Source of the DNA: an uncultured Bacilli bacterium
Lineage (GTDB): Bacteria; Bacillota_I; Bacilli_A; RF39; UBA660
DNA: 43,511 nucleotides
Direction of reading: 5' to 3'
Assembly: GCA_947598345.1 (NCBI GenBank)
Contig: CANQFF010000001.1
Location: 1 to 43,511 of the forward strand
Of the stretch, positions 5,131-39,652 are shown piece by piece (position 1 is the first letter of the stretch; each line of letters begins with the position of its first letter). A model generated the notes under the pieces. It did no database searches. It was given only the letters and a program-made list of their open reading frames with translations, and was not told the DNA's origin. The translations under genes and the position numbers were made by a program.

Positions 5131-5265
5131 TTTGTATCCTCCCTTCGCCTATATCCAGTATAGACATGCTCCGCGTAAAAACCCGACATCCAAGTATATT
5201 TTATATAACAACTTAACCTGGCGTGTCAGCAACCTTACACATCAACGCAACGCCACACATACAGA

Positions 5266-8767: not shown

Positions 8768-9235
8768 TTAATCTAGGAAATTATCATCCATGATAGAAAC
8801 ACTATCACCAAATTCAGCAAATGGATCATTTTCAATATTGACTTCTTGACCTTGTGCATCATCTTGATAGTCATATGGTGTTGGATTAGAATTACTAGAA
8901 CTGCTAGCTGACATTGCAGCTTTGCTTTCTACAAATTCAAAATTATCTAAAGCAACATCAACTGTATATCTCTTATTTCCATCTTTATCATCATAATTTC
9001 CTGTTTGCAATCTACCTTCGATTGCTATTAAATTACCTTTATCAAAAAACTTTGATATAGTCTCTGCTTGTTTTCGCCAAGCTACTACATTTATAAAATC
9101 TGCATCTCTTTTACCATCAGCATTTGTAAAATTCCTATTTACTGCAATACTAAATCTTACATAAGCTGTATTTGATGTAGTATATCTTAACTCTGGTTTA
9201 GCAGTAAGTCTTCCTATTAATACTACCTTATTCAT
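8768..9235 (-). CDS. ssb: Single-stranded DNA-binding protein
   Basis: OB-fold start MNKVVLIGRLTAKPELRYT. Low-complexity acidic tail. rpsF-ssb-rpsR synteny. Confidence 0.95.
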   Translation of the reverse strand: MNKVVLIGRLTAKPELRYTTSNTAYVRFSIAVNRNFTNADGKRDADFINVVAWRKQAETISKFFDKGNLIAIEGRLQTGNYDDKDGNKRYTVDVALDNFEFVESKAAMSASSSSNSNPTPYDYQDDAQGQEVNIENDPFAEFGDSVSIMDDNFLD

Positions 9236-9246
9236 AGATTCACCTC

Positions 9247-9549
9247 TTAGTCTTCCTTATTTATTATTAAATGTCTAATAATATCATTACTTATTAAAGC
9301 TAAACGATCAAATTCTTTAATAGCCTTATCATCATTTGCTTCAATATTGACTACGAAGTAATATCCACTTTTATAAGTTTCATTACCTACTTTAATTTCG
9401 TATGCTAAAGTTTTTTGTCCCCATGCATCAACATTAGTAACTTTCGCACCATTATTTTCTAATACTTTTTGAAAATCAGATGCAACCTTTTTAATTTCAT
9501 CTTCGCTTTTTGTAGGTTTTACAATGAACATTATTTCATAATTTCTCAT
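9247..9549 (-). CDS. rpsF: 30S ribosomal protein S6
   Basis: MRNYEIMFIVKPT... is S6-like. First gene of rpsF-ssb-rpsR. Confidence 0.95.
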   Translation of the reverse strand: MRNYEIMFIVKPTKSEDEIKKVASDFQKVLENNGAKVTNVDAWGQKTLAYEIKVGNETYKSGYYFVVNIEANDDKAIKEFDRLALISNDIIRHLIINKED

Positions 9550-10654: not shown

Positions 10655-13129
10655 TTAATTATAACCTATATCCGAACCTTTTACAGTAATTACTGGTCTT
10701 ACTCCAACTCCTGCAGTTACAAAATAAGGTAAACCACTTGTTATTGAAAGACCATCGTGGTAACTAACCAAAGTAGAAGGTGGAGTCGTATCAAGCACCC
10801 AATATGTCCCCCTCGCATATTCTCCTGAAATCACATCATACGCTGTAAATGGCAACCTAGCTTTCAATTCTAAATAAGAAGCTGTAACAGTACCTGTATC
10901 CTCGTTCAATATGTTAGTTTTAAGACCCATTTGAACCGCTGGCATACTGTAAGAATATGAGAATCCTCCTTTTGAATTTAAATAGTTTATAGAAAACTTT
11001 TGAGAAGGTATATTTGTCCAATCCTTTGTTGCACTATATAAATCATCATATGCTTTAATTGGACCATCTTTTATAGCACCACTGGCAGCAAAAGCAGTAC
11101 TTGCACCACCTAAACTACCATTTTTACTAATATTGTCCTCTAATATCAAATCTATGTCAGCATCATCCGTTATTTTAGATTTAGATACTACGAAGAAGTG
11201 ATATGATTTTGTATCATTTACCTTACATATAAATTCTTCCCCCATTGGGGCAACATTACCTTTAAATGGTACAAAACCTTTTAAAGCTCCGGAACTTGTT
11301 TTGCTTGCAGTTTCTTGTGTTACTGCTTGGCAAATATATGTTTTTGGTGCTGCTGGTTGTACTGGTATTGATTCAATTTCTCCATCAACATAACTAAGTA
11401 ATGTATCGACATCGTTACTATCAATAACACCGTCATCATATACATCAGCATATTCTGTTTTTATATTGAGTTCATATGCATCACTAGAAGATTGACTAGG
11501 ATTTTGTTTAATGAATTCAACATATTCACTTAAATCTTCTACATCCTGTTCATCAATTACTGTATCATTATTAACATCACCTAATTTTCCAGAAGCTTGT
11601 AATACTGCTTTTGGAAGCTCAACCATCAATCTTACAAAATTTGTATCAGTATTTGATACTGAATTAACATAATTCATTAAATAGTCTTTACCCGCACCTC
11701 CAGTAGGATCAGGAAGAGAATTTTCTATACTCTTTACTCCATAATAATATTTATCTTCATAATCCGGTATACCCGGTAAAATCCATCCTGGATATCCAAA
11801 TGAATTTGGGCACACTATATCATACTGGCTAACATTTCCAGTTATCCATTCTTCTTTTTCACAAATCTCCTCTACATCCTCATAATATGGTATGCGGGCC
11901 CTCATGTTTTTATAGGTTAATATTGCACTATTAGTCATTCCAATACGAATATCACCAGTATCACTTGTTGAAACAGTAAACATAGTTTTATCCAACTTTC
12001 GATTAATTTTAATCCTTGGAAATGTTGGCCATCCTTGCGTAATTTTATCTATAATGGTAAAAACATTATCAGGAACTGTAGTTGATAAATTTGCTCCATA
12101 TTTAACTGATTCACCAACAGACTCTCCTTTTGTCAAAGACCCATTGCTATTTACACCTGCAATTAAGTTCAAAGAAACTGTATCATCACTTATAGATGCC
12201 ACTCTAAAATTATATTTATTAAATCCATCAACAGTACATACATATTCGTCACCTAATTGTATCTTCCCATCTGGCAATGTTCCATAAGCATCATATTGAT
12301 ATACACTATTAACCTTGAAAGATTTTACTAAATCTTTCTTCGCAGCTGGTACACATAGTCTATTAATCTCTACATCATCAGTTATATTATCTATACTTAT
12401 TTGTGTTACAGTTCCTGGATAATAATTATTAGTATAATCAGTCCCAGGTGTTAATAATTTATTCCCCATAGTTACTACATAATAAGGCATATTGGGAAGT
12501 TTAGTAGTATTATAACTACCTCCATCCGCAACTTCTACATCATCAAGACCAATCCATGGGCCAAACTTAATTGTATGAAATTTTCTAAAATCAACAGTTA
12601 AAGATAGTGGAAAAGATACATTAGATGAACTAAAACTACTAGCATCCTTATATTGAATAGTCAATTTAAATGTTTTTTTAGCTCCTAATTTACAATTACC
12701 GGCAGTATCACATATTTTTGTCCCTAAAGTATAATCACTTACCGAATATTTCAAGTTGTCAGGTAATCCCTTAAAAGCATTTATACCCATGGCAACATTT
12801 CCAAAATTCTCAACTGTTATATCAAATACAACAGTAGAAGTTGCTGTAGGTAGCGTTATACCTAAATTTAAAAGCCTACTAGTATAATGTATATCAGTTG
12901 ATATACCACCTGTAGAAGATGATGATGTAACTACATTAGTTACTCTTATGTCTTGAAGCTCATCTACATAACCGACCATACCAGTTACTGTTAATTTTTT
13001 ACCTAGCGCAGCATAAGCCACTGTTAGAAGAAAAATTGAAATGGACAATATAGCACAAATAGAGTATATATTAATACTCTTTCGCACTTTTTCATTAAAA
13101 CTATTTAGCCATCTTTTTAGCTTTCTCAT
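10655..13129 (-). CDS. Large secreted adhesin-like protein: TasA-like N-domain, two repeated modules, internal dockerin
   Basis: Signal/anchor LLTVAYA|ALGKKLTVTG resembles that of the small subunits. Two dockerin-type Ca-binding repeats at aa 517-584. Two similar modules of roughly 230 aa. ATGA overlap with the upstream gene. Confidence 0.85.
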   Translation of the reverse strand: MRKLKRWLNSFNEKVRKSINIYSICAILSISIFLLTVAYAALGKKLTVTGMVGYVDELQDIRVTNVVTSSSSTGGISTDIHYTSRLLNLGITLPTATSTVVFDITVENFGNVAMGINAFKGLPDNLKYSVSDYTLGTKICDTAGNCKLGAKKTFKLTIQYKDASSFSSSNVSFPLSLTVDFRKFHTIKFGPWIGLDDVEVADGGSYNTTKLPNMPYYVVTMGNKLLTPGTDYTNNYYPGTVTQISIDNITDDVEINRLCVPAAKKDLVKSFKVNSVYQYDAYGTLPDGKIQLGDEYVCTVDGFNKYNFRVASISDDTVSLNLIAGVNSNGSLTKGESVGESVKYGANLSTTVPDNVFTIIDKITQGWPTFPRIKINRKLDKTMFTVSTSDTGDIRIGMTNSAILTYKNMRARIPYYEDVEEICEKEEWITGNVSQYDIVCPNSFGYPGWILPGIPDYEDKYYYGVKSIENSLPDPTGGAGKDYLMNYVNSVSNTDTNFVRLMVELPKAVLQASGKLGDVNNDTVIDEQDVEDLSEYVEFIKQNPSQSSSDAYELNIKTEYADVYDDGVIDSNDVDTLLSYVDGEIESIPVQPAAPKTYICQAVTQETASKTSSGALKGFVPFKGNVAPMGEEFICKVNDTKSYHFFVVSKSKITDDADIDLILEDNISKNGSLGGASTAFAASGAIKDGPIKAYDDLYSATKDWTNIPSQKFSINYLNSKGGFSYSYSMPAVQMGLKTNILNEDTGTVTASYLELKARLPFTAYDVISGEYARGTYWVLDTTPPSTLVSYHDGLSITSGLPYFVTAGVGVRPVITVKGSDIGYN

Positions 13130-22406: not shown

Positions 22407-22960
22407 TAATTATATTTGTTCATTAAATTATCAAATGGTAATACAAGATAATCTTCAATTATATTAGGCATTTTATCTATTATTGGCTTAATTAAATCTA
22501 ATTCTTCTTTACTAAACTTTCCTAAAACATAATCTTTAGTATCTTTAGTTTTATCATTTGATATACCTATTTTAATTCTTTTATATTCATTTGTAGATAA
22601 ATTTTGTTCTATATTTTTAAGACCATTATGACCTCCACTAGATCCCTTATATCTTAATCTATATGAACCCACTTGAGTATCCAAGTCATCACATATAACT
22701 AATATATCATTTATATCTATTTTAAAAAAATTAACAAAATCTCTAATTACTTCCCCAGATAAATTCATGTACTTTTGAGGTTTTAATAAAATTATTTTCT
22801 CATTTTTATAGTTAAACTGTGTATATAAACCATTAAATTTGTTTGAATCTAATAAAACATTAAAATGATTAGATATACTATCAATACACATAAATCCTAT
22901 ATTATGTCTAGTTCTATTATATTCTGATCCTGGGTTTCCTAAACCTACTATAAGTTTCAT
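22406..22960 (-). CDS. pth: Peptidyl-tRNA hydrolase
   Basis: MKLIVGLGNPGSEYNRTRHNIGF is the Pth signature. Confidence 0.95.
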   Translation of the reverse strand: MKLIVGLGNPGSEYNRTRHNIGFMCIDSISNHFNVLLDSNKFNGLYTQFNYKNEKIILLKPQKYMNLSGEVIRDFVNFFKIDINDILVICDDLDTQVGSYRLRYKGSSGGHNGLKNIEQNLSTNEYKRIKIGISNDKTKDTKDYVLGKFSKEELDLIKPIIDKMPNIIEDYLVLPFDNLMNKYN

Positions 22961-23811
22961 AAATCACTTCTTTCTATACTGTGGTACGAATCATATACTT
23001 CACTTTTTTTCATACCACGCTCTTTAGCAACTATTTTAATAGCATCCATTGAACTTTTTCCATCTTGAATATATAAATCAACATGTTCTTTTATTGTTAA
23101 AGATTTATATTCTAATGCTTTTTTATTACCCTCAATTACAATTACAAGTTCCCCCTTATATTCGTTATTTTCATTTATTAATTCTTCTATAGTTCCTCTA
23201 TATATTTCTTCATATTTTTTTGTTATTTCCCTTGATATAGAAATTTTTCTATTACTTCCTAAAATATCACTTAAATCTTTTAAAGTCTTATTTATTCTAT
23301 GAGGTGCTTCGTAAAGTATTAAAGTAGCATCTATATTTTTTAGAAATTCTAATTCTTTTTTTCTAGCACTAGATTGAGATTTTAAAAAACCATAGTAATA
23401 AAATGGCATGGGACTAATTCCTGAAGAAGTTAAAGCTGGTATTAAAGCTGTTGCACCTGGTAAACTAATGACATTATACCCCTTTTCAATAGCATATCTT
23501 GAAAGTTCATAACCAGGATCACTTATTATAGGTGTACCTCTATCACTCACAAGCCCTACATTACATCCATTTTTTAAATATTCTAATAATTTTTCTTTAT
23601 TATTAGCTTCATTAAATTCATGAGATGATATTAATTTTTTATTTATATCATAATATTTTAATAACTGTCCTGTTACCCTAGTATCTTCACAAAATATTAC
23701 ATCAACCATTTTAAGTGTATTAATAGCTCTTATAGTTATATCTTCCATGTTACCTATCGGCGTTGGAATAAGATATAAACTTGGAGTATTATTATAACTT
23801 TTTTGAGACAT
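22957..23811 (-). CDS. rsmI: 16S rRNA (cytidine1402-2'-O)-methyltransferase
   Basis: LYLIPTPIGNMEDITIRAINTLKMVDVIFCEDTRVTGQLL is the RsmI/YabC family N-terminus. Confidence 0.9.
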   Translation of the reverse strand: MSQKSYNNTPSLYLIPTPIGNMEDITIRAINTLKMVDVIFCEDTRVTGQLLKYYDINKKLISSHEFNEANNKEKLLEYLKNGCNVGLVSDRGTPIISDPGYELSRYAIEKGYNVISLPGATALIPALTSSGISPMPFYYYGFLKSQSSARKKELEFLKNIDATLILYEAPHRINKTLKDLSDILGSNRKISISREITKKYEEIYRGTIEELINENNEYKGELVIVIEGNKKALEYKSLTIKEHVDLYIQDGKSSMDAIKIVAKERGMKKSEVYDSYHSIERSDL

Positions 23812-29272: not shown

Positions 29273-29686
29273 TTATCTTCTTTTTTTAAAAAAGGATTGT
29301 ACCATTTTTTTACATTCTTCTTCACAAACTTTTGATATTATTTCAATATTTTTTAATTTTTCTGTATATCCATAATTTTCGTTTTTTGCACCATAAACTA
29401 TTTTTTTTATTCTAGATTGTTCTATTGCTCCACAACACATCATGCATGGTTCCATTGTTATATATATTTCACAATCATCTAATCTCCAATTTTTTAATTT
29501 TTTGCATGCTTTTGATATTGCGATTATTTCTGCATGTTTTGTACAATTTTTTAATTTTTCTTTTTTATTGTGTGCTTTTGATATTATTTTATTATTTTTA
29601 ACAATAACAGCCCCTACTGGTACTTCTTTCTTTTTTTTAGCTTTTTTTGCTTCTTTTATAGCAATTTGAATATAATATTCATTCAT
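29273..29686 (-). CDS. tadA: tRNA-specific adenosine(34) deaminase
   Basis: CDA zinc motifs HAEIIAI and PCMMCCGAI. Confidence 0.92.
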   Translation of the reverse strand: MNEYYIQIAIKEAKKAKKKKEVPVGAVIVKNNKIISKAHNKKEKLKNCTKHAEIIAISKACKKLKNWRLDDCEIYITMEPCMMCCGAIEQSRIKKIVYGAKNENYGYTEKLKNIEIISKVCEEECKKMVQSFFKKRR

Positions 29687-29697
29687 TTATACCTCCA

Positions 29698-29715
29698 ATG
29701 TTTCACGTGAAACAT
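29698..29715. other. parS site 1 (ParB/Spo0J centromere-like site)
   Basis: Core TGTTTCACGTGAAACA at 29699-29714 within an 18-nt perfect palindrome. It abuts the tadA Shine-Dalgarno (GGAGG at 29692-29696 on the minus strand). Confidence 0.8.
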
Positions 29716-29792
29716 ATAATTTTATTTTTTATTATTATATTTTTATTACAGATTATAAATAATTATGTTTATTTTATAAAGATATTTATCTT

Positions 29793-29820
29793 ATTCAATG
29801 TTTCACGTGAAACATTGAAT
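29793..29820. other. parS site 2
   Basis: Core at 29799-29814 within a 28-nt perfect palindrome (ATTCAATG...CATTGAAT). Confidence 0.8.
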
Positions 29821-29842
29821 ATTTTTTATTTATTTTAGTAAT

Positions 29843-29858
29843 TATTTTCTGGGAAATA
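29843..29858. other. Degenerate Noc-binding-site-like palindrome
   Basis: TATTTTCTGGGAAATA has 2 mismatches to TATTTCCCGGGAAATA. It sits in the same relative position as the 30348 copy within the duplicated unit. Confidence 0.35.
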
Positions 29859-29870
29859 ATTATAGTTATA

Positions 29871-29950
29871 AAAAAAGCACACACATTTAGGGATTTTTAA
29901 GGCTGCTGTTTTCCAACTCTGACCTGGTTCAAATATAAATGTTGTGCAGT
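29871..29950 (-). ncRNA. ffs: Small (4.5S-type) signal recognition particle RNA
   Basis: The minus strand reads ACCAGGUCAGAGUUGGAAAACAGCAGCC, against E. coli 4.5S ACCAGGUCAGGUCCGGAAGGAAGCAGCC. A closing stem GCACAACAUUUA/UAAAUGUGUGUGC is followed by U6. Confidence 0.8.
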
Positions 29951-30064
29951 AATAATATATTATAAAAACATAAAAATATCAACAAATTAATATAATTTAT
30001 ACTCATTTTTTATAAAATTTGAATATTTTATACATTATTTTCTTTTAATATTGGTTTGTATTTA

Positions 30065-30104
30065 TATTTTAATCAATGTTTCACGTGAAACATTGATTAA
30101 AATA
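30065..30104. other. parS site 3
   Basis: Core at 30077-30092 within a 40-nt perfect palindrome. Confidence 0.8.
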
Positions 30105-30128
30105 AATAATATATATAATTTTAAGCAG

Positions 30129-30154
30129 TCACATGTTTCACATGAAACATGTGA
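30129..30154. other. parS site 4 (variant)
   Basis: Core TGTTTCACATGAAACA at 30134-30149 has one central G-to-A change. The flanks TCACA/TGTGA are still symmetric. Confidence 0.65.
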
Positions 30155-30194
30155 TTATATTTTTAATTAATTTTTGTTAAATATATATTTAATT

Positions 30195-30226
30195 AATTTA
30201 TATGTTTCACGTGAAACATATAAATT
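30195..30226. other. parS site 5
   Basis: Core at 30203-30218 within a 32-nt perfect palindrome. Confidence 0.8.
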
Positions 30227-30294
30227 TAATTTTTTATTATTATATTTTTATTGTAGATCATAAATAATTATATTTATTTTAGAATTATATAGGT

Positions 30295-30328
30295 TTTATC
30301 CAATGTTTCACGTGAAACATTGGATAAA
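30295..30328. other. parS site 6
   Basis: Core at 30304-30319 within a 34-nt perfect palindrome. Confidence 0.8.
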
Positions 30329-30347
30329 TTTTGTTTATTTAAATAAT

Positions 30348-30363
30348 TATTTCCCAGGAAATA
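30348..30363. other. Noc-binding-site-like palindrome
   Basis: TATTTCCCAGGAAATA has 1 mismatch to the NBS form TATTTCCCGGGAAATA. Confidence 0.45.
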
Positions 30364-30367
30364 ATAA

Positions 30368-30399
30368 AAGAGTAATGTTTCACGTGAAACATTACTCTT
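30368..30399. other. parS site 7, doubling as the gyrA terminator-like hairpin
   Basis: Core at 30376-30391 within a 32-nt perfect palindrome. Its right arm contains the last two gyrA codons and the stop. A T-rich run follows on the minus strand. Confidence 0.8.
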
Positions 30400-32902
30400 C
30401 ATCAGTGCTTTGATCAACTAAATCTGTTTCTTCTTCATGATTAATGATTGCAATTGTACTTACTTTTTGATTATCTTTAAGATTAATTAATTTAACACCT
30501 TGTGTGACACGGCCTGTTGATGAAACTTGTTCTAAAGGTAATCTTATTATCATGCCACTATTTGTAATAATCATTAAATCTTCATCACCTGTTACTATCT
30601 TAAATGAAACAATATTACCATTTTTCTCAGTTACATTTAAAGCTTTTACACCTTTACTACCCCTATGAGTCATTCTGTACTGATCTATAGATGTTTTTTT
30701 ACCATAACCATTTTCAGTAACTACTAATACATTAGCATGCTCTGGAGAAATTTCCATGCCTACAGCAAATCCATCACCGACATCAATTCCTTTAACACCA
30801 GAAGCAGTTCTTCCCATGATTCTGATTTCTTTTTCATTAAATCTTATAATTCTACCATTTGAAGAAGCTATTAAAATTTCTGAATTTCCTTCAGTAATTT
30901 TAGCTGAAATCAATTCGTCGTTTTCTTTTAAAGTTATAGCTATCTTTCCATTTGTCCTAATATTTTCAAATTCTTCTATATTAGTTCTCTTTATTATACC
31001 ATTTTGTGTACAAAGTACAACATAAGCTGGTACATCTTTAGGAGTAGCTTTTAGCATTACATTTACTTTTTCATCTTTTTCTAATGGTAAAAGATTAATG
31101 ATTGGTAATCCTTTAGATTGTCTACTATATAAAGGAACTTCATATCCTTTCATTCTATAAACTTTTCCTTTATTAGTAAAGAATAAGATATAGTCGTGTG
31201 TAGTCATATAAAGTATATTTTCAACAAAATCCTCTTCATTTGTCGTCATACCTTTAATTCCAACGCCACCTCTATTTTGTAATTTATATGTATCACTTTC
31301 AACTCTTTTAATATAACCCTTATTTGTCAAAGTTACTACTAAATCATCTACAGGTATTAATGATTCATCATCTATATAATCAATTGCTGTCATGTCTATT
31401 GATGTTCTTCTTTCGTCAGAATATTTATTTTTTATTTCTAATAATTCTTTTTTGATAATTTCTAAAACTTTTTGTTCACTTTCTAATATTGATTTAAGTT
31501 CTTCAATTAATTTTAATAAATTATCTAATTCTTCTTCTATTTTCGCTCTTTCTAAGCCTGTTAATCTTCTTAATTTTAATTCTAGTATACTTTCTGATTG
31601 AATTTGGGTTAAATTAAATCTACTCATTAACTCATTCTTTGCAATCTCATCAGTATCAGATTCTCTAATTATCTTTATAACAGCATCTATATTATCAAGT
31701 GCGATTTTATATCCCTCTAAGATATGAACTCTTGCCTCTGATTTTTTTAAGTCAAATCTTGTTCTTCTTATAATTACTTCCTTCTGATGATCAATATATT
31801 TAGATATTATATCCTTTAGTGGTAAAGTTTTTGGAGTACCATTATCTAGCATCAAAAATATTATTCCATAATTTGTCTGGAAAGAGGTATGCTTATACAA
31901 ATTATTTAAAATTACCTGAGCATTTGCTTCCTTTTTTAATGTTATCGTTATCTTAATACCATCTTTTAAGTCTGTATGATAATCTGATATACCATCAATA
32001 ATTTTGTTATGAACTAATTCTGCAACCTTATTTTTTAAATCCATTGTATTAACGCCATAAGGTACTTCTGTAATTACAATTTGTGTGTGACCACCGTGTT
32101 CCTCAATTGATGCCCTACTTCTAACCGTAATTGAACCTCTACCAGTTTCATAAGCTTTTCTTATTCCAGAATTTCCTAATATTATTCCACCTGTTGGGAA
32201 ATCTGGACCTTTAATATATTGCATAAGACCTAAAGTATCAATATCATGATTATCAATATATGCAACGCATCCATCTATTACTTCTCCTAAATTATGTGGT
32301 GGGATATTAGTTGCCATTCCAACTGCAATTCCCATAGAACCGTTAACTAATACATTAGGAAATCTTGAAGGTAGTACTTTTGGTTCTTTACTAGTAGCAT
32401 CAAAATTATCTTCCATGTCAACAGTATCTTTATTTATATCTCTTAATAATTCAAGTGAAATTTTTGATAATCTAGCTTCTGTATAACGATAAGCAGCTGC
32501 TCCATCGCCTTCTATATTACCAAAGTTACCGTGTCCATCAACTAACATATATCTTTGATTGAAATCTTGAGCTAAACGAACCATTGCATCATAAATTGAA
32601 GAATCTCCATGTGGGTGATAATGTCCCATAACATATCCTACTGTTGTAGCTGATTTTTTATGGGGTTTATCAGGAGTATTTCCCTCCTCAAACATAGACC
32701 ATAAAATTCTTCTATGTACTGGCTTTAATCCATCTCTTAAATCTGGTATAGCTCTTGATGTTATAACACTCATTGAATAATCAAGAAATGAACTTCTTAC
32801 TTCACTTACTATATTGTTTTCAGATAAACTATCTCTTTCATGAAATTTATCTGAAAAATCTAATGTTTCATTATTATTTTCTAATTTATTTTCGTTATCC
32901 AT
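30392..32902 (-). CDS. gyrA: DNA gyrase subunit A
   Basis: 836 aa. Active-site block GAAAYRYTEARLSK, beta-pinwheel repeats, and an acidic C-terminus. Confidence 0.97.
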   Translation of the reverse strand: MDNENKLENNNETLDFSDKFHERDSLSENNIVSEVRSSFLDYSMSVITSRAIPDLRDGLKPVHRRILWSMFEEGNTPDKPHKKSATTVGYVMGHYHPHGDSSIYDAMVRLAQDFNQRYMLVDGHGNFGNIEGDGAAAYRYTEARLSKISLELLRDINKDTVDMEDNFDATSKEPKVLPSRFPNVLVNGSMGIAVGMATNIPPHNLGEVIDGCVAYIDNHDIDTLGLMQYIKGPDFPTGGIILGNSGIRKAYETGRGSITVRSRASIEEHGGHTQIVITEVPYGVNTMDLKNKVAELVHNKIIDGISDYHTDLKDGIKITITLKKEANAQVILNNLYKHTSFQTNYGIIFLMLDNGTPKTLPLKDIISKYIDHQKEVIIRRTRFDLKKSEARVHILEGYKIALDNIDAVIKIIRESDTDEIAKNELMSRFNLTQIQSESILELKLRRLTGLERAKIEEELDNLLKLIEELKSILESEQKVLEIIKKELLEIKNKYSDERRTSIDMTAIDYIDDESLIPVDDLVVTLTNKGYIKRVESDTYKLQNRGGVGIKGMTTNEEDFVENILYMTTHDYILFFTNKGKVYRMKGYEVPLYSRQSKGLPIINLLPLEKDEKVNVMLKATPKDVPAYVVLCTQNGIIKRTNIEEFENIRTNGKIAITLKENDELISAKITEGNSEILIASSNGRIIRFNEKEIRIMGRTASGVKGIDVGDGFAVGMEISPEHANVLVVTENGYGKKTSIDQYRMTHRGSKGVKALNVTEKNGNIVSFKIVTGDEDLMIITNSGMIIRLPLEQVSSTGRVTQGVKLINLKDNQKVSTIAIINHEEETDLVDQSTDEE

Positions 32903-36068: not shown

Positions 36069-36524
36069 TTAATCAATTTTTTCTAATTTTCTTTCATATA
36101 ATTTAGATTTCAACATAGTAGCTCTTATTATTTGATTTTCTAAAGAGTATAATGATATATCGACATCTAATAGTAAATCATTTTTAAATAAAACTCTACT
36201 TACCATATTATTTTTTGTATACTTTTTAATTTTATTTAATGCTATCCAAGTACTTTGTTGAGTTCTAGAAGATGTTGTAGGAAAAAAAATTATATTTCTA
36301 CTCTCTTCTATTATTATAGGATACTTTGACTTTATACCTGTTAAACTCTTAGTTCCAATACATCTACCTTGATATGAACTACCATAAAATTCACAATTCT
36401 TTTTTATAATACTATTAGAAGATTTTTTTACTATATAAGATGTTTCCTCTTCATATATTTTTGATGTAGAATCATCTATTGGTACTATAGCTAAAGTTGA
36501 TGAATTTATTTCATATTCTTCCAT
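36069..36524 (-). CDS. comK: ComK-family competence transcription factor-like protein
   Basis: YEINSSTLAIVP ... CEFYGSSYQGRCIGTKSLTGIKSKYPIII ... IIFFPTTSSRTQQSTWIAL follows the ComK family block order. Strong ribosome-binding site AAGGGGGA. Confidence 0.75.
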   Translation of the reverse strand: MEEYEINSSTLAIVPIDDSTSKIYEEETSYIVKKSSNSIIKKNCEFYGSSYQGRCIGTKSLTGIKSKYPIIIEESRNIIFFPTTSSRTQQSTWIALNKIKKYTKNNMVSRVLFKNDLLLDVDISLYSLENQIIRATMLKSKLYERKLEKID

Positions 36525-39233: not shown

Positions 39234-39652
39234 AACTCTACCTCCTTAAAACTTATACACATATATTTTACAATATTTTTTATCTAAAAACAACAAAAAT
39301 AAGTGCATAAAACATAAAAAATCTACATTTTTTGATATGTGCACAAATTAAAATATAAAAAGCTATATATATGTGTATATTTTTTTGTTATGAACAAATT
39401 TTATAAACTAAAGAAAACTAAATAAAATAAGCTAAAAAGAAAGTTATGAACATTTTTGTTCATAAATATTTAACTAAAAAGATGTAAACAAAATTAATAT
39501 TTTGTGCATAAGTGTATTATTTTGTTCATAAATTTTATCAACAATAAAGTTATCAACAAAAATGTTCATAAATGTATTTTTATAAATATTTCCCGGGAAA
39601 TAAAATTTAATCATCTTATTTTATTATTAAATAAACAATAGAATAAAAATAG
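39234..39652. other. oriC part 1 (dnaA-rpmH spacer): cluster of DnaA boxes
   Basis: TTATNNACA-type 9-mers or their complements at 39253, 39338, 39388, 39444, 39457, 39503, 39523, 39535, 39550 and 39563 (start positions). This includes the inverted pair TTATGAACA-TTTT-TGTTCATAA at 39444-39465. Confidence 0.8.
39587..39602. other. Perfect Noc-binding-site (NBS) palindrome at the edge of oriC
   Basis: TATTTCCCGGGAAATA contains the B. subtilis NBS consensus ATTTCCCGGGAAAT exactly. Confidence 0.6.

Follow-up and report, generated by a model that had tools for sequence, protein, structure and literature searches.

The 43,511-bp contig CANQFF010000001.1 of an uncultured Bacilli bacterium (assembly GCA_947598345.1), analysed here over its entire length and called the window below, carries between gyrA and tadA an island of 0.7 kb with seven copies of parS, the 16-bp palindrome of chromosomal ParABS/Spo0J systems. 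Pattern search of the window recovered TGTTTCACGTGAAACA exactly at 29699, 29799, 30077, 30203, 30304 and 30376, and a single-mismatch copy, TGTTTCACATGAAACA, at 30134, in agreement with the six exact copies and one variant copy reported by an initial annotation of this DNA. Beyond these seven, the whole window contained no match at up to two mismatches. The chance expectation was 0.01 matches and none of 100 shuffles reached seven, which bears out the assignment of six exact matches and one near-exact match to the parS consensus. The classical consensus of B. subtilis is TGTTNCACGTGAAACA, with a degenerate N at position 5. Spacing among the sites was irregular (57-278 bp), and parS 1 abuts the ribosome-binding site of tadA in the arrangement parS-T-TGGAGG-N7-ATG. 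The seven sites are as follows.

29699..29714 (core): parS 1, exact, in a palindrome of just 18 bp (29698-29715)
29792..29821: parS 2, exact core (29799-29814) within a 30-bp perfect palindrome
30065..30104: parS 3, exact core (30077-30092) within a 40-bp perfect palindrome
30129..30154: parS 4, core 30134-30149 with one central mismatch, within a 26-bp palindrome
30195..30226: parS 5, exact core (30203-30218) within a 32-bp palindrome
30295..30328: parS 6, exact core (30304-30319) within a 34-bp palindrome
30368..30399: parS 7, exact core (30376-30391) within a 32-bp palindrome

On one strand the window encodes dnaA, dnaN, a ComK-family gene, recF, gyrB and gyrA, and on the other rpmH, rnpA, yidC, jag and mnmE. 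The GC skew switches sign near 39-40 kb, and repeated 9-mers that resemble DnaA boxes occur in the dnaA-rpmH spacer at about 39.25-39.7 kb. Both features place the replication origin (oriC) in this spacer and thus the parS array about 9 kb from it, the distance that had been estimated before. Within the oriC spacer (39250-39580) the exact DnaA box TTATCCACA was found zero times. The 9-mers of the TTATGAACA / TGTTCATAA type occur there five or six times, and the remainder are TTATGCACA and TTATCAACA. We consider it likely that the gyrA-tadA island is a chromosomal centromere-like region, namely a seven-site loading array for ParB.

Conservation of the array was examined in the 80 closest gyrA loci (L001-L080, 1.44 Mb in total, 72-93% protein identity) from a one-genome-per-species GTDB collection. 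All of them come from uncultured gut organisms (hosts rabbit, human, ruminant and chicken; G+C about 23-33%), mostly labelled Bacilli, Tenericutes, Mollicutes or Bacillales, with some labels evidently wrong, and a few are Candidatus genera (Aphodocola, Scybalousia) or Clostridium sp. CAG:302. Including the additional loci described below, about 1.7 Mb of DNA was searched in relatives, all of it origin-proximal. In the 80 loci, 312 of 313 parS matches with up to one mismatch fell in a zone from -60 to +2600 bp relative to the end of gyrA. In 65 loci the downstream sequence was long enough for the sites to be counted, and of these 54 had an array of at least two parS sites, 42 had at least four and 13 had at least seven, with a median of 4 sites per locus (range 0-10) and a median span of 755 bp. 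To the left of oriC, zero parS sites were found at up to one mismatch in 14 loci (a further 250 kb), and nine left-of-oriC loci had none even at up to two mismatches. The proposal that this is the only cluster thus held for the 43.5 kb of the window as well as for its relatives, where a single one of the 313 matches was off-locus. A scatter of the palindrome as expected of repetitive extragenic palindromic (REP) sequences or miniature inverted-repeat transposable elements (MITE), which the initial annotation had named as the pattern that would refute a centromere, was not seen in the 1.44 Mb and 250 kb of origin-region DNA, and such dispersal is ruled out in the regions examined by the concentration of 312 of 313 matches at one locus and by their absence from the 250 kb on the left.

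Two parS positions were near-fixed, one at or just past the gyrA stop codon or terminator, and the other with its 3′ end 12-15 nt ahead of the tadA start, where it runs directly into the ribosome-binding site (parS-T-TGGAGG-N6-7-ATG). The gene of the signal recognition particle (SRP) RNA was found by Rfam search at the equivalent position in 7 of 7 relatives tested. Judged from these loci, the array is a lineage-conserved, origin-proximal trait of a large clade of AT-rich uncultured gut Bacilli.

Clade-wide, 204-213 of about 310 parS copies were exact (the upper figure includes the six of the window), and 75 of 107 single-mismatch copies varied at position 5 or 12, as TGTTCCACGTGAAACA or its mirror image. 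This concentration of mismatches at the tolerated N (5/12) is as predicted for recognition by a canonical ParB. The pair flanking the core was A/T in 297 of 313 copies, by which the conserved unit becomes effectively an 18-mer, ATGTTTCACGTGAAACAT. In one subclade (L007-L011, L024, L034, L042), parS was lost or down to one or two degenerate copies, and a distal Noc-binding site (NBS, described below) was exact. L042, which has no consensus parS, had, past the end of gyrA (12510-12595), a variant that is not palindromic, ATGTTCCACGAGCAACAT, in three copies, at least one of them with complementary extended flanks (GGTAATG...CATTACC), and this variant may represent a shifted specificity or a decaying array spread by duplication. 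Decay could be taken further, by supposing that ParB was recently lost and that all sites are relics, since no ParB was found and in some close relatives all copies are degenerate. We regard this as most improbable, because six of seven copies in the window and 204 of about 310 in the clade are exact, while duplication is still making new copies whose arms are kept by compensation.

The earlier description of the island as free of protein-coding open reading frames (ORFs) was confirmed, as we found no credible protein ORF in the tadA-gyrA spacer, where only four low-complexity frames of 36-47 aa, artefacts that cross the palindromes, could be read. It is not a non-coding island, however, because the SRP RNA gene (ffs, or scr) sits in its middle according to Rfam. 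The flanking genes, the SRP RNA gene and two duplicated units are as follows.

29861..29957, minus strand: SRP RNA gene (Rfam RF00169, 56.9 bits against a gathering score of 40)
29273..29686, minus strand: tadA-like tRNA adenosine deaminase gene (best match TadA, 131.6 bits, under the curated cut-off of 150)
30392..32902, minus strand: gyrA (1142 bits), the upstream flank of the island
29698..29865, plus strand: duplicated unit A, consisting of parS, 84 bp, parS, 28 bp and an NBS-like site
30202..30370, plus strand: duplicated unit B, a direct repeat of unit A (about 170 bp, about 84-90% identical)

Read along the gene strand, the order from the gyrA side is gyrA - parS - NBS-like site - parS - parS - parS (one mismatch) - parS - ffs, and it continues from ffs as ffs - NBS-like site - parS - parS - tadA - dnaX - ybaB - recR - holB, with dnaX-ybaB-recR coming after tadA. 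Upstream of ffs there is a promoter-like sequence, TTGATA-17-TATATT (29982-29954), and its 3′ end has a T-run of its own. A comparison of units A and B showed a compensatory double change in the arms of parS 6 relative to its paralogue parS 2 (TTCAA/TTGAA versus TCCAA/TTGGA). In L036, the SRP RNA gene was duplicated (12694-12779 and 12858-12943) along with flanking parS. Together with the 170-bp duplication of the window, this indicates that the island expands by local duplication. The arrangement around ffs, with one site always 12-15 nt upstream of the tadA start and others flanking the ffs promoter and terminator, would also suit operators through which an unrelated transcription factor controls ffs and the tadA-dnaX operon. 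Two small transcription units would nevertheless hardly need seven to ten operators, the neighbouring genes include no candidate regulator, the sequence is exactly that of parS, and where the same arrays occur elsewhere they are associated with parB genes, so that we hold an operator function to be highly improbable.

Perfect symmetry continues beyond the 16-bp core by 1, 7, 12, 5, 8, 9 and 8 bp at parS 1-7, respectively, resulting in palindromes of 18-40 bp, and the arms differ from copy to copy in the window. Single-strand folds of the extended sites had energies of -10 to -15 kcal/mol (z -4.7 to -7.8), including a DNA hairpin of -10.4 kcal/mol (z -7.5) for parS 2 and a hairpin of -15.3 kcal/mol for parS 3. 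Clade-wide, the mean extension was 3.1-3.6 bp compared to 0.55 bp at control positions, and positions ±2 to ±5 were complementary in 49-61% of 305 distinct sites compared to 31-42% after shuffling, with several pair types represented. An extension of at least 3 bp was present in 53% of clade sites, 26% of sites in other metagenome arrays and 6% of sites in viral arrays (both described below). For NBS sites, an extension of at least 4 bp was present in 33 of 102, and about half were without any extension.

At parS 7, one arm is formed by the end of gyrA including its stop codon (GAA GAG TAA) and is matched by the non-coding arm. The hairpin is followed by a T-rich tail on the gene strand, and a terminator-like match was returned on the minus strand at 30400-30367. 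The post-gyrA parS of other species had different arms, which were always complementary, with A prevailing in the 5′ arm and T in the 3′ arm. A terminator scan returned five parS hairpins against 0.1 expected, including the copy at the gyrA end and three copies on the antisense strand. From its sequence, the parS 7 hairpin looks like a terminator at the gyrA stop codon, and it resembles bidirectional intrinsic terminators in its stable stem, A-rich 5′ arm, and T-rich 3′ arm and tail. It differs from them in that the core of its stem is an invariant predicted protein-binding site, and most other copies of the array have no T-tail on the gene strand. Gene-strand T-tails were not enriched overall across sites, by which a general terminator role is ruled out as the main explanation. 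Our reading is that hairpins at some positions have recruited the parS core as their stem, CACGTG being one of the few sources of stable pairing in a genome of 23% G+C. Symmetric arms could persist because the hairpin is selected for, or because correction templated by the hairpin restores them during replication.

These observations allow a stronger claim, in which the palindromes serve above all as hairpins in RNA or DNA (terminators, insulators or REP-like elements) and their likeness to parS is incidental or secondary. Six of the seven cores lie in perfect palindromes of 26-40 bp with differing arms, the five terminator-like matches are all of these hairpins, the first post-gyrA site has A-tract and T-tract arms in many species, and the flanks covary at ±2 to ±5 throughout the clade. 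An invariant 16-bp core with variable arms is, however, the opposite of what a purely structural element would show, and this core is the universal parS consensus including the tolerated variant at position 5. The most conserved copy, the one fused to the tadA ribosome-binding site, has no arm extension, and the elements are absent from other terminators and intergenic regions in the 1.7 Mb searched. With the unenriched T-tails added to these points, we consider a primarily structural role very unlikely, and a centromere-like array, in which a hairpin role was gained by some copies, to be the better explanation.

The second palindrome of the island was searched as the NBS, ATTTCCCGGGAAAT, at which Noc, a paralogue of ParB, binds. 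Three copies were found in the window.

29843..29858: NBS-like palindrome TATTTTCTGGGAAATA, two mismatches, just 3′ of ffs in unit A
30348..30363: NBS-like palindrome TATTTCCCAGGAAATA, one mismatch, between parS 6 and parS 7
39587..39602: exact NBS TATTTCCCGGGAAATA, in the dnaA-rpmH (oriC) spacer, beside the DnaA-box-like 9-mers and outside the array

The window and L001-L083 contained 75 exact NBS copies, in DNA of 23-30% G+C, and about half of all NBS matches were inside the island of about 1 kb. A triad of parS-NBS-parS just past gyrA recurs in relatives, and in the distant relatives L060, L065, L067 and L072 NBS arrays are found at the position that parS arrays have in other loci. In L002-L036, an NBS was also kept about 6.5-7.3 kb downstream of gyrA. 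By its offset, this distal site falls in a methylase (rsmI-like) gene of the window (22957-23811), where the copy at 23224 is degenerate.

A profile hidden Markov model (HMM) of ParB and Noc, run against the six-frame ORFs of the window and L001-L087, matched Noc-type genes only. In close relatives (MnmE 81-92% identical), mnmE-mnmG-rsmG are followed by a gene for a single protein of 503-619 aa with ParB_N and HTH_ParB domains, with no ParA gene beside it. One of these relatives shares its metagenome-assembled genome with locus L002. The genes identified are as follows.

L081, 15542-17170: Noc-type gene
L083, 5314-6942: Noc-type gene
L084, 14130-15641: Noc-type gene
L086, 14113-15972: Noc-type gene
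L087, 9869-11593: Noc-type gene

Nine more loci, down to about 60-64% identity and including spore-forming relatives, likewise had a lone Noc-type gene after rsmG. The best NCBIfam match of the protein was Noc (TIGR04285, 282.6 bits, under the cut-off of 315), and among structures Noc (7NG0, 208.6 bits) came ahead of Spo0J (6SDK, 170.4 bits). In a search of 1.84 billion representatives, the 150 best representatives of 50% clusters were all relatives with long linkers (62-88% identity, 291-885 aa), all but three of them at least 383 aa long. That the family splits into so many 50% clusters is due to its variable linkers. The proteins start 8-14 residues ahead of ParB_N (MYDNLSKVIDVDINEILPNRFQPR...), which by inspection of the sequences leaves no room for the amphipathic membrane helix of Noc, and the ParA-stimulating LGKGL peptide was not found in the relatives' proteins. 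ParB_N and HTH_ParB are followed by a repeat-rich linker of 200-600 aa (P/Q/S/T) with recurring FDIFG motifs and by a Noc-like C-terminal domain. In L086 and L087, near-perfect tandem repeats of about 45 aa were observed, in 7 and 6 copies, respectively.

The specificity residues of the close relatives, read by alignment, were Q173, K179, N184 and R201, three of which are the Noc residues, and Q173 and R201 were present in 81 of 81 readable signatures among the 120 nearest homologues, which were searched for with the Noc-like N-terminal domain. Jalal et al. assigned the reading of adenine 1 of NBS to Q173 and that of cytosine 6 to R201. In their account, a lysine at 179 or 184 is a permissive residue, R173 and G201 do not vary among ParB orthologues that bind parS, and variants with dual specificity mostly have T or S at 201 (PMC7383237). 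The part of their supplements available to us had no entry for the QKNR variant. By these residues and the published rules, the Noc-type protein is predicted to bind NBS and not parS. Classical nucleoid occlusion by a protein that appears to have no membrane helix is unlikely.

The initial annotation had made the centromere conditional on a ParB homologue, expected with soj after mnmE-mnmG-rsmG. A ParB-family gene is indeed located there in relatives, but it is of the Noc type with QKNR residues, it is not accompanied by parA, and no such gene is in the window. The following results weigh against a ParB loading array. The six-frame HMM search found no ParB-family ORF in the window or in the 80 gyrA-centred loci, the sole ParB-family gene in 14 origin-left loci, from near as well as more distant relatives, was the Noc-type gene after rsmG, without parA or parB, and no ParB with R173 and G201 was found in the window or in the approximately 1.7 Mb of relatives' origin regions. 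A tblastn search with B. subtilis Spo0J had no match in the window and L001-L080. In L256, there was no soj, spo0J or ychF between the Noc-type gene and rpsF-ssb-rpsR. The corresponding noc-to-rpsF interval of B. subtilis contains soj and spo0J.

This could be because soj-spo0J was lost and one Noc-derived protein loads at both NBS and parS, through dual specificity or an altered interface. A single ParB-family gene in each origin region examined, with the soj-spo0J position empty, would be expected in that case, and the strong enrichment of NBS in the island, its interleaving with parS in the triad and its replacement of parS arrays in four distant relatives would fit as well, as would a protein that is without the amphipathic helix of Noc and thus has little prospect of serving in nucleoid occlusion. 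On the other hand, mutational scanning and structures predict binding of NBS only for QKNR (PMC7383237), both motifs are exact and distinct with no drift towards an intermediate form, the decay of parS in one subclade is not shared by NBS, and the search covered origin-proximal DNA, leaving room for a second gene elsewhere. A single protein with two sites is therefore unlikely in our view. Since parS and NBS are exact, distinct and have independent fates, the best explanation is a pair of binders, one of them the Noc-type protein described above and the other a parS-type ParB whose gene would lie beyond the DNA reached. A further scenario for these gut Bacilli of reduced genome, which combines the loss of soj-spo0J with a Noc-derived paralogue (long-linkered, helix-less and without a ParA partner) as origin organiser, parS and NBS as interchangeable parts of a composite hub, and hairpin-templated palindromes that double as terminators, is similarly doubtful. 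If true, such a hub would imply a natural ParB/Noc protein of dual specificity or an unrecognised reader of parS.

Dense parS arrays were then sought in other sources. A scan of IMG/VR for two exact parS sites 44-74 bp apart identified 47 viral contigs (L088-L134, G+C 0.24-0.69) with arrays of 2-8 exact parS at 23-74-bp spacing, and a ParB gene was present in 1 of the 47 in the stretches examined. This indicates a possibility that mobile elements hitch-hike on the ParB of the host. A metagenome scan for three exact parS sites at 34-64-bp spacing identified at least 120 loci (L135-L254). Among the metagenome matches listed, there were 3-17 exact parS sites per locus (G+C 0.26-0.73), roughly 60% of loci had an ORF for a canonical ParB of 300-350 aa within about 1 kb, and the readable ParB specificity signatures were always R...G. 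Many of these listed loci also had rsmG, mnmG, dnaA or gyrB, neighbours which indicate that many of the arrays are chromosomal origin regions, and NBS sites were present in none of the listed arrays. One recurrent form had three parS sites in 78 bp right after rsmG, about 0.85 kb ahead of a 303-aa ParB (G+C about 0.5-0.57, many contigs from human-gut assemblies). None of the 167 viral and metagenome array loci listed belonged to the clade of the window, the best MnmG identity being 53%.

Stacking of parS had been presented as unusual in the initial annotation, and this did not hold, as at least 120 metagenome loci had three exact parS sites, with up to 17 among the matches listed. The array of the window is a common though little-described form, and its stacking is not exceptional. 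What distinguishes it is its position around ffs and not beside parAB. As equally dense arrays occur near canonical ParB genes in metagenomes, dense arrays appear to be a normal form of the chromosomal centromere. The dense arrays of uncultured bacteria and mobile elements are likewise made of exact parS sites, set 25-75 bp apart and in many cases located in origin regions, and the listed metagenome arrays, unlike the array of the window, usually have a canonical ParB of 300 aa at a distance of up to about 1 kb.

Compared to the parS sites of chromosomal ParABS/Spo0J systems in model organisms, the array has the identical 16-bp palindrome and the same tolerated variant at position 5, and its sites are also multiple and origin-proximal. 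Clustered chromosomal parS sites are known in Caulobacter, Corynebacterium, Myxococcus and Streptomyces. The variation in copy number between relatives of the window matches that reviewed in PMC7333895, where parS was stated to range from 1 to more than 20 copies between species and the reason for clustering was listed as an open question. In contrast to the model-organism sites, those of the window are far denser (7 in 0.7 kb), wrap ffs between gyrA and tadA, and belong to a clade with extended palindromes, for which the origin regions searched yielded neither ParA nor a canonical ParB. The Noc/NBS system of Bacillus and Staphylococcus shares with this clade the exact NBS, a ParB paralogue after rsmG, Noc-like residues and the C-terminus. 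The clade protein differs in having no N-terminal helix, a linker of 200-600 aa and N instead of K at position 184, and its sites are concentrated among parS in the origin island, whereas known Noc sites are scattered. The sopC locus of the F plasmid consists of a 43-bp unit in 12 tandem copies, every copy containing an inverted repeat of 16 bp. It is likewise a compact array (about 0.5-0.7 kb) of 16-bp palindromes of the ParB family, whereas the array of the window is chromosomal, irregularly spaced (57-278 bp) and of the chromosomal consensus, and its units are not tandem.

If the island is a ParB loading array, as we favor, CTP-bound ParB dimers would load at each of the seven sites and slide into the flanks formed by gyrA and tadA-dnaX. 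Close spacing of the sites would give a high local loading rate and a single compact partition complex about 9 kb from oriC. This complex would mark the origin for segregation and, if B. subtilis and S. pneumoniae are a guide, would probably be an entry point for SMC as well. As no ParA was seen, an arrangement without ParA, as described for S. pneumoniae or S. aureus, is plausible (PMC7333895). The Noc-type paralogue would probably load at the interleaved NBS sites of the same island. Over time, the array would grow and shrink through local duplication and decay, and some copies may have gained a second role as hairpin stems, for example the terminator-like one at the gyrA stop codon. ParB binding, spreading or clamp loading, and SMC recruitment are what we infer from observed properties of the sites, namely their position, conservation, restriction to one locus, mismatch spectrum and palindrome extensions.

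The array offers a clean, clade-wide case of a very compact chromosomal centromere, if our interpretation is right, in bacteria not yet culturable. It bears on the open question of why parS sites cluster and vary in number, with 0-10 copies between close species, and makes both duplication and decay of parS directly visible in one clade. We find the island shared by parS and NBS, the co-varying arms, and the anchor-less Noc-type gene as the sole ParB-family gene near the origin to be of more interest than the array itself. If a parS-type ParB were truly absent, the clade would be a natural test of the specificity rules of ParB and Noc.

Several other features of the origin region were observed. 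The ComK-family protein (PF06338, E 5e-39) is encoded at 36069-36524 on the minus strand, between dnaN and recF, and every origin locus examined in relatives had the gene at this position. Ahead of the S10 operon, at 5145-5253 on the minus strand, lies an S10-Clostridia ribosomal leader (RF03136, 37.8 bits). The gene order is strongly rearranged compared to B. subtilis, with ffs-tadA-dnaX in the window and tadA-scr-dnaX in that species. rpsF-ssb (8768-9549, minus strand) is found on the gyrA side of oriC at a distance of just about 30 kb and adjoins a block of genes with little or no Pfam annotation, which encode a dockerin-like protein of 824 aa, a DUF5305 protein and a signal peptidase.

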